Source: a virus
Virus record (IMG/VR): IMGVR_UViG_3300046170_000289
Reading direction: 5' to 3' (one strand)
Length of the DNA stretch: 64,000 bases
In this document: piece after piece, positions 7,113 to 9,399 of the stretch
Layout of the letters: each line of letters opens with the position of its first letter
Position numbering within the stretch: the stretch's first letter is position 1
The notes under the pieces: generated by a model
Seen by the model: the letters and a program-made list of their open reading frames with translations, nothing else
Told to the model about the DNA's origin: nothing
Databases searched by the model: none
Translations under genes and position numbers: made by a program

Positions 7113-7186
7113 CGATCCAGGTTGGATTCGAACCAACGACCGACTGCTTAGAAGGCAGTTGCTCTATTCCACTGAGCTACTGGACC
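7113..7186 (-). tRNA. tRNA-Arg(UCU), CCA not encoded
   Basis: GGTCCAG acceptor, TAGCTCAGTGG D arm, ACTGC-CTTCTAA-GCAGT anticodon arm, GTTCGAATC T loop. Confidence 0.95.
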
Positions 7187-8867: not shown

Positions 8868-8888
8868 AGATGTAAAAGAATATTAAAA

Positions 8889-8908
8889 AAGAGGGGTCAC
8901 CCCCTCTT
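8889..8908 (-). terminator. Intrinsic terminator after DUF4278 gene
   Basis: AAGAGGGG-loop-CCCCTCTT followed by TTTT. Confidence 0.85.
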
Positions 8909-8916
8909 TACTTAGG

Positions 8917-9084
8917 TCACTTGCTGTAGGTCTGCCCACGGTAGCAGAAAGTCCCATGGGACTCAGTGCTTTCCACACAACGTGTGTCATACTTAACACC
9001 ACGGTATGAGGTGTGAGTAATCTGTGCGTCATGCAAGGCAGATGCCTTGTGGATTTGCTTGCGAATGAGGTTAAGTGTGTTCAT
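8917..9084 (-). CDS. DUF4278-family small protein (55 aa)
   Basis: MNTLNLIRKQ...SYRGVKY...CYRGQTY, two YRG motifs; GAGGA RBS. Confidence 0.75.
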   Translation of the reverse strand: MNTLNLIRKQIHKASALHDAQITHTSYRGVKYDTRCVESTESHGTFCYRGQTYSK

Positions 9085-9118
9085 GAGTATGTCCTCTGAA
9101 GTTAGGGTTTTTAATCCC

Positions 9119-9303
9119 CGTTCCTTCAGCCGTTTTCGTCCCAATACCACTCACATTCTGGTGCTGATTCCTTTAAGGTATCGACCAACTCGATCTTAAC
9201 TTGATTGCTAAGATTCTGATTGCTCTCAATCTTCAGCATGATAGCGTCAGTCTGAGTGCAGGTGAGTGTTGAATAGAATAATAGTTCTAGCATGGGATGA
9301 ACG
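9119..9303 (-). ncRNA. Glutamine-riboswitch-like aptamer copy 2, with ORF-sized P2 loop
   Basis: CGTTCATCCC ... GGGACGAAAACGGCTGAAGGAACG; same flanks as copy 1, about 150 nt between the P2 strands. Confidence 0.5.
9126..9293 (-). CDS. Small hypothetical protein (55 aa) nested in aptamer copy 2
   Basis: Hand translation MLELLFYSTLTCTQTDAIMLKIESNQNLSNQVKIELVDTLKESAPECEWYWDENG; GGAG RBS; missed by ORF track. Confidence 0.7.
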   Translation of the reverse strand: MLELLFYSTLTCTQTDAIMLKIESNQNLSNQVKIELVDTLKESAPECEWYWDENG

Positions 9304-9306
9304 CTC

Positions 9307-9358
9307 CGTTCCGCGACTTACTTGCGTCCAAAAGGATATAGAGTCCCTTGGATGAACG
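9307..9358 (-). ncRNA. Glutamine-riboswitch-like aptamer copy 1 (Downstream-peptide type)
   Basis: CGTTCA-TCC[hairpin]GGA-CGCA-AGTAAGTCGC-GGAACG; P1 CGTTC/GAACG. Confidence 0.65.
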
Positions 9359-9383
9359 TATGGTCATGATAACATGACATGAC

Positions 9384-9391
9384 TATTTATG
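9384..9391 (-). promoter_or_regulatory. Late-type promoter upstream of the aptamers
   Basis: CATAAATA, one mismatch from T4 TATAAATA; a second GATAAATA at 9401-9408. Confidence 0.55.
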
Positions 9392-9399
9392 CAAGTCCC

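Follow-up and report, generated by a model that had tools for sequence, protein, structure and literature searches.

A probable nested double-core glutamine riboswitch with a gene enclosed in an aptamer stem in a cyanophage genome

The locus considered here raises the question of what becomes of an aptamer when a whole gene lies within one of its stem-loops, i.e., whether the sequences that flank the gene still belong together as RNA and, if so, which of the strands pair with each other. It lies in a 64,000-nt stretch of viral DNA (IMG/VR record IMGVR_UViG_3300046170_000289), hereafter called the window, and the initial annotation described it as two side-by-side copies of a glutamine-riboswitch-like aptamer, the second of which holds a complete ORF. 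The comparison with relatives points instead to a double-core glutamine riboswitch in which one core is folded within the other, a reading that we consider probable (roughly 70%). The best DNA matches of the window are to Kyanoviridae and it carries nrdA and nrdB genes. A PhotoRC-II RNA (RF01717) at position 1397-1493 (48.9 bits, cutoff 39) and a tRNA at position 7113-7186 (69.7 bits), both on the minus strand, fit a T4-like cyanophage.

On the minus strand a promoter-like site is followed by a structured leader starting with CGUUC (9358), a 55-codon ORF, a 41-nt spacer, a DUF4278-like gene and a terminator. The units of this arrangement are:

9366-9394, minus strand: putative promoter TTGCAT-N17-TATCAT (regular-expression match)
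9126-9293, minus strand: nested 55-codon gene, cyanophage cluster T4-GC 430, PHROG 504 (ORF and homology)
8917-9084, minus strand: DUF4278-like (IF17-like) 55-codon gene with two YRG motifs (Pfam PF14105, PHROG 545)
8886-8909, minus strand: intrinsic terminator that closes the two-gene unit, with a 9-10-pair stem and a T run after it

All elements of the initial annotation were found on the minus strand in the places that it had given. Copy 1 consists of CGUUC (9358-9354), a hairpin, GGACGCA and a GGAACG that ends at 9307. Three nucleotides further on starts CGUUCAUCCC (9303-9294), which is directly followed by the ATG of the nested gene at 9293, while the 3' half of copy 2 is GGGACGAAAACGGCUGAAGGAACG (9142-9119). 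The ribosome-binding motif of the nested gene, GGAG, is found at 9307-9304. The promoter had been described as late-type, and the corresponding CATAAATA is indeed present at 9391-9384, but it sits within the spacer of the sigma-70-like TTGCAT-N17-TATCAT. A sigma-70 promoter scan gave no site up to the threshold of the tool, TTGCAT-N17-TATCAT scoring below it. In relatives the promoter is much clearer, TTGAC(T/A)-N17-TATAAT, and ends about 7 nt ahead of CGUUC. The promoter region of the window contains no NtcA box.

The enclosed ORF, which had been placed as a whole within the stem-loop of the aptamer, turned out to be a real and conserved gene. A tblastn search with its protein gave at least 305 phage records, and the element is also found on several hundred metagenomic viral contigs. 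The median dN/dS is 0.205 (281 sequence pairs), and the length of the gene shifts in whole codons, from 53 to 55 in protein-anchored loci and up to 63 in a wider, pattern-anchored sample, bar two frame-variant loci. Divergence of the protein goes so far that it can barely be aligned, yet the RNA flanks stay unchanged; no Pfam family and no informative neighbour in a protein atlas was found for it. The stop codon (TGA at 9128-9126 in the window) is away from its usual place in CU(G/A)AAG in 2 of 204 loci (L120 and L197), both with an intact RNA motif; in L120, read-through extends the nested ORF to 69 codons.

The 5' half-site and the 3' half-site lie on either side of a homologous ORF in each of the 12 annotated phage genomes that were fetched, and on either side of the nested ORF in 91 of the 93 protein-anchored loci with enough sequence; 164 unique cores were found in total. 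The resemblance of the half-sites is thus not due to chance. Selection on the RNA is seen at the end of the gene, where the last four codons (D-A-N/H-D) encode GGGA-CGCA-linker-CGACU in relatives. Among 67 unique ORFs collected by protein similarity, synonymous differences amounted to 0 of 1047 in these codons and 2948 of 10265 (29%) in the gene body, and the last four codons are therefore constrained as RNA. The non-coding AGGAACGG past the stop codon is invariant, and variation is limited to the linker between CGCA and CU(G/A)AAG. Known glutamine aptamers have a variable linker at the same place, with CGCA and GGAACGG fixed (PMC6698751). The 5' strand ahead of the AUG occurs only as UCCC, UCCU, or UCUC, each of which pairs with the fixed GGGA if G-U pairs are allowed. 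In L120, finally, the reading frame through the motif differs and the motif is intact. The flanks of copy 2 might have been conserved merely through the protein, as the initial annotation had considered; the absence of synonymous change and the motif kept out of frame argue against this.

The same data bear on the idea that the element is an evolutionary relic, i.e., that an old aptamer was interrupted by a gene and that the flanks are now kept for the amino acids W-D-A-N-D and for translation start, with no long-range pairing left. It would fit with the overlap of the 3' half with coding sequence and the location of the 5' half in the initiation region of the nested gene. It accounts neither for the lack of synonymous variation in the W-D-A-N-D codons, nor for the invariance of non-coding sequence past the stop, the out-of-frame motif, and the covariation between distant partners described below, and we find it very improbable.

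The assignment of the flanks to the glutamine aptamers was upheld, in that both half-sites are homologous to halves of such aptamers. The Rfam search proposed along with it detected no glutamine aptamer in the window at gathering thresholds; run permissively, it returned copy 1 as a specific, sub-threshold match both to RF01704 (Glutamine-II; 9361-9300, 23.2 bits, cutoff 33) and to RF01739 (Glutamine; 9360-9303, 22.1 bits, cutoff 35). The 12 annotated relatives are likewise sub-threshold, with best scores of 30.4 and 28.8 bits, and RF01704 gave 28.8-32.1 bits in the best relatives, also below its cutoff. In place of an edited sequence, use was made of natural compact relatives, which have a short (tetraloop) hairpin where the gene would be. 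Their second unit, which likewise precedes a DUF4278-type gene at the corresponding place, passes the RF01739 cutoff, with 40.3 bits in L276 and 36.4 bits in L250. The window falls below this threshold because the model is unable to span a gene-sized insertion. The traits of RF01739, i.e., a CGUUC/GAACG P1, a P2 hairpin, and the conserved pocket nucleotides, are all present in the window; GAAGGAACG is an exact match to the RF01739 consensus and AGUA (9322-9319) fits it. The CGUUC/GGAACG pseudoknot typical of RF01704 does not occur in the supported fold, where this helix is nested. A 3-bp CGC/GCG P2-like stem in copy 1, taken from the RF01704 alignment, was rejected, as the spacer from GGAACGG to the second CGUUC varies without keeping the stem.

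Two registers can be drawn for these strands. In the side-by-side arrangement each copy closes its own P1 (9358-9354/9311-9307 and 9303-9299/9123-9119) and the gene lies in the stem-loop of the second aptamer. In the nested register the features are:

9354-9358, minus strand: 5' strand of outer P1, CGUUC, partner 9119-9123 (inner pair CG:112, UG:4, none unpaired, in 117 sequences)
9327-9352, minus strand: outer P2 hairpin, UCCAAGGGA...UCCUUUUGGA (closing pairs covary strongly)
9319-9326, minus strand: outer linking strand CGCA and loop-E half AGUA (CGCA invariant in alignment A2)
9314-9318, minus strand: 5' strand of P3, AGUCG, partner CGGCU at 9128-9132, with one U-G pair in this phage (compensatory variants)
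9298-9312, minus strand: inner P1 hairpin, G-GAACG-G, loop AG, CGUUC-A (GC:112, CG:5, none unpaired)
9293-9297, minus strand: 5' strand of inner P2, UCCCA, including the A of the AUG, partner UGGGA at 9139-9143 (pairing conserved across loci)
9133-9143, minus strand: 3' strand of inner P2, UGGGA, with linking strand CGAA and an AA junction, all within the coding end of the nested gene (W-D-E-N)
9118-9132, minus strand: 3' strand of P3, CGGCU, with loop-E half GAA and G-GAACG-G (3' strand of outer P1 and linchpin G 9118)

In this fold C 9324 pairs with G 9118 as the outer linchpin, the GGAG of the nested gene falls in the end and loop of the inner P1 hairpin, and the nested stop codon straddles the boundary between P3 and loop E, the GAA being 9127-9125. 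The inner core, which lies inside P3, repeats the ligand-pocket nucleotides of the outer core but in permuted order. The closing pairs of outer P2 occur as UA/AU/CG/GC and CG/UA/AU/GC, and every one of the 167 unique loci has an inner P2 of at least five contiguous pairs, always including the A of the AUG.

The sequence of the window is compatible with both folds, and the topology thus rests on the relatives; neither does the energy model separate the two (-71.5 kcal/mol nested, -71.0 kcal/mol tandem). The registers were compared on an alignment of 117 sequences (A2). All tandem pairs can form in 112 of these, each unit is aligned contiguously by Rfam, and tandem glnA RNAs are known (PMC2864571). 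In compact relatives the contiguous second aptamer, which passes the cutoff, is aligned as a normal stand-alone aptamer, so that a tandem conformer is physically possible. The remaining five sequences, which come from different backgrounds, are however informative. They have CAACG as the first 3' strand and CGUUG as the second 5' strand, a swap that breaks both tandem P1 helices, leaving 10 cells unpaired, and keeps every pair of the nested fold (GC:112, CG:5). The linchpin gives the same answer. The first linking strand is CGGA in 10 of 44 unique compact double cores, and all 10 have a C past the distal GAACG, with G retained past the proximal GAACG and CGCA retained as second linking strand. 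With this CGGA...C pattern (G,G,C,C) the linchpin pairs of these 10 unique sequences are intact in the nested and broken in the tandem register. Moreover, the linker of copy 1 pairs and covaries with the linker of copy 2, which constitutes P3; next to the majority AGUCG/CGACU the compensated pairs AGUCA/UGACU, AGACU/AGUCU, and GGACGG/CCGCCC are found, and U-A, A-U, and G-C are all seen as closing pair. Side-by-side aptamers leave this linker-linker covariation without a reason, and they give each unit only half a loop E, as AGUA belongs to one copy and GAA to the other; the two halves come together beside P3 in the nested register only. One lineage has one or two C-A mismatches in P3 and a few variants weaken it. 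Together the P1 swap, P3, the linchpin, and the split loop E argue for the nested fold, and the tandem pairing put forward initially is unlikely. The covariation among relatives that had been suggested as a check was thus present for CGUUC/GAACG in the nested register and failed in the tandem one, and UCCC/GGGA varied only in a G-U compatible way.

It is also conceivable that both registers are used. The four P1 strands could be interchangeable, shifting the RNA between a tandem and a nested state, with glutamine bound by the outer core only and with the inner hairpin and the gene-closing stem serving mainly as expression platform of the nested gene. Most sequences have identical P1 strands, and the outer linking strand and linchpin are kept in 116-117 of 117 sequences, the inner ones in 113. 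The window itself is without the inner linchpin pair, its inner linking strand being CGAA where the family consensus is CGCA, and the C-to-A change resulting in A-G where the family has C:G. CGAA occurs in only 3 of 164 unique cores, but it is shared with the near relative L279 and is therefore no sequencing error, and glutamine binding by the inner pocket in this phage may be weak or absent. Against such strand exchange as a general explanation stands the invariance of the inner CGCA at synonymous sites, which is hard to explain unless it is part of a pocket, and variants in which the tandem register is lost survive in nature in several backgrounds. We rate this exchange as about as doubtful as fixed side-by-side aptamers, and the nested double core remains the preferred reading.

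The gene that follows had been named as a DUF4278 gene. It is DUF4278-like, with a PF14105 score slightly below the cutoff (24.4 bits, cutoff 25.3, E = 3.7e-5) and a match to PHROG 545 with E = 9e-35. Ahead of it an alternative pairing was found:

9096-9129, minus strand: alternative "OFF" helix, CUGAAG at 9129-9124 with CUUCAG at 9101-9096 (covariation)

The OFF helix holds the nested stop codon, encloses a small hairpin GGG...CCC (9118-9105), and adjoins the ribosome-binding motif GAGG (9096-9093) of the DUF4278-like gene. In relatives CUU(C/U)AG is likewise directly 5' of this motif or overlaps it. Of 167 unique loci, 144 can form all six pairs and 155 carry a Shine-Dalgarno-like motif at the 3' end of the helix. 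The two strands follow each other, in that relatives with a TAA stop always have CUUUAG (26 sequences) and those with a TGA stop have CUUCAG (25) or CUUUAG (8), an A-C mismatch never being seen in either. The segment CU-GAA-G is needed for P3, loop E, and outer P1, which makes the OFF helix and the cores mutually exclusive. For the outer core this exclusion suggests a glutamine ON switch, in line with the role of glutamine aptamers as ON switches for IF17 and DUF4278 genes (PMC6212724). The predicted fold of the window RNA with the OFF helix (-75.8 kcal/mol) lies about 4 kcal/mol below either aptamer fold, as would be expected of a switch whose cost has to be covered by ligand and tertiary contacts.

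The cassette varies considerably among relatives. In some the outer P2 loop also holds an ORF, so that hairpin or gene occurs in all four outer/inner combinations. The outer coding sequence of loci of the L240, L250, L292, L125, and L010 type ends in ...C..(Y/F)..GRK-stop, where GGA-CGC-AAG-UAA corresponds to the P2 3' strand, CGCA, and AGUA, with the stop codon in AAGUAA. It follows from this ending that the stop codons of both enclosed ORFs lie in the two loop-E strands. An extra conserved module of about 35 nt is present between GGAACGG and CUUCAG in L014, L047, L049, L062, L063, L074, L090, L099, and L288, i.e., in the spacer ahead of the DUF4278 gene; it consists of AAAACGGAUCC, a covarying hairpin and GAGAAGGUU, and gave no match to an Rfam family (L010 scanned). 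In L057 (840-1475) the nested gene is followed by a 211-amino acid ORF that has an HNH-like motif and replaces the usual spacer and DUF4278 start, with another CGTTCATCCC ahead of it, which suggests the insertion of a homing endonuclease in a riboswitch. In L030 (600-700) an insertion of about 100 nt separates the first GGAACGG from the second CGUUCA, CGUUCAUCCC still being directly before the AUG.

The cassette is also found outside Kyanoviridae, as Synechococcus phage S-SKS1 (L011, genus Llyrvirus) has it as a whole, with leader, nested gene and short YRG gene, suggesting that it moves as a unit. Some contigs with the element are filed as cellular, i.e., L278 (a Nonlabens xiamenensis assembly, 188 kb), L249 (a Synechococcus MAG), and L292 (a Prochlorococcus SAG), the last two about 190 kb long. 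Their size is that of cyanomyovirus genomes, and infected cells, mis-binning, or contamination probably account for phage genomes being filed in this way. The scan of prokaryote genomes gave no sign of a host chromosomal copy; real matches were only on short or phage-genome-sized SAG/MAG contigs, and the other matches look like chance.

From the anatomy of the RNA we infer glutamine binding, ON switching, a block of initiation, and unfolding by ribosomes. At low glutamine the CUGAAG/CUUCAG helix would form beside the ribosome-binding site of the IF17-like gene and reduce its translation. Glutamine would stabilize the cores, bar the OFF helix and turn the IF17-like gene on, as in the ON switches of gifB leaders. 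The inner core, once folded, would bury the GGAG and AUG of the nested gene. Conversely, a ribosome on the nested gene that terminates at the stop codon within the core would have to unfold both cores, and it is therefore proposed that translation and glutamine sensing compete on one RNA. That translation of the nested ORF competes with aptamer folding had been suggested already, and may reasonably be inferred from the layout. The ON/OFF logic might be more complex, since ribosomes that terminate in the OFF helix could open this as well. Kinetically, a stem that spans 165 translated nucleotides is hard to keep closed. Splitting a glutamine-II aptamer into two RNA strands does not abolish glutamine binding (PMC6698751), which makes long-range assembly physically plausible. 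It is tempting to speculate, at somewhat less than even odds, that an aptamer helix closes across a translated gene, that two interlocked glutamine pockets share P3, that each ribosome terminating on an enclosed gene, with the stop codon in a loop-E strand, resets the sensor, and that glutamine level and translation rate together set a reciprocal expression of the nested and IF17-like proteins.

Cyanophage glutamine aptamers are already known (PMC9964418). A survey of riboswitch distribution counted only two in cyanophage genomes and concluded that riboswitches are seldom used by phages (PMC5473149). In the literature searched, largely open-access, neither a nested double core nor a gene within an aptamer was found described. 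Curated models miss the element because of its nested fold and the gene-sized insertions that split it, and the at least 305 deposited cyanophage records found here, compared to the two counted (PMC5473149), reveal a blind spot of such surveys. If the interlocked reading is true, riboswitches are common in cyanophages and not rare. It would also extend the limits of known aptamers to a stem over 165 translated nucleotides and a permuted core in P3, offer a direct system for studying ribosome traffic against ligand sensing on one mRNA, and suggest that phages control nitrogen assimilation of the host by way of an IF17-like factor whose expression follows the glutamine level.

A close known relative is the glnA type I aptamer (RF01739), as in the Synechocystis gifB (IF17) leader (PMC6212724). 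The outer core is like it in having the CGUUC/GAACG P1, the P2 hairpin, the linking strand with a long-range linchpin pair, loop E (AGUA/GAA), and P3; both precede a DUF4278/IF17-like gene, and in both, as proposed for the leader (PMC6212724), ligand binding would melt a helix that occludes the Shine-Dalgarno sequence. The phage P3, on the other hand, does not end in a small hairpin but holds a second, permuted core and a 165-nt gene; the linchpin pair in this phage is C:G, as in type II, and the window scores under the Rfam cutoff. With Glutamine-II (Downstream-peptide, RF01704) of Prochlorococcus and Synechococcus (PMC6698751) it shares the pocket nucleotides CGUUC, CGCA, and GGAACGG, a pair of the C19:G41 type, and a helix that flanks GGAACGG directly ahead of the start of a short DUF4278 gene; it is the Glutamine-II aptamer that can be built from two separate strands (PMC6698751). 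The phage CGUUC/GAACG helix, in contrast, is nested and forms no pseudoknot, and the phage element has two cores, with a gene in one stem-loop.

Two ligand-binding cores within one leader are the hallmark of tandem riboswitches. The glycine riboswitch is such a tandem arrangement. Tandem glnA RNAs (PMC2864571) also have two cores per leader, with a sharper response as a possible consequence. The phage cores, however, would be threaded one within the other and share P3.

Leader ORFs provide the last comparison. In Salmonella mgtA/mgtL, a short leader ORF is present whose translation competes with RNA folding. In mycobacterial riboswitch leaders with translated uORFs, short-ORF translation is reported to compete with RNA folding as well (bioRxiv 10.1101/2022.06.01.494293). 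These leader ORFs, like mgtL, encode short regulatory peptides and lie in the expression platform, whereas the phage ORF is a conserved protein gene of 53-63 codons in the stem of an aptamer, with its stop codon in the core.
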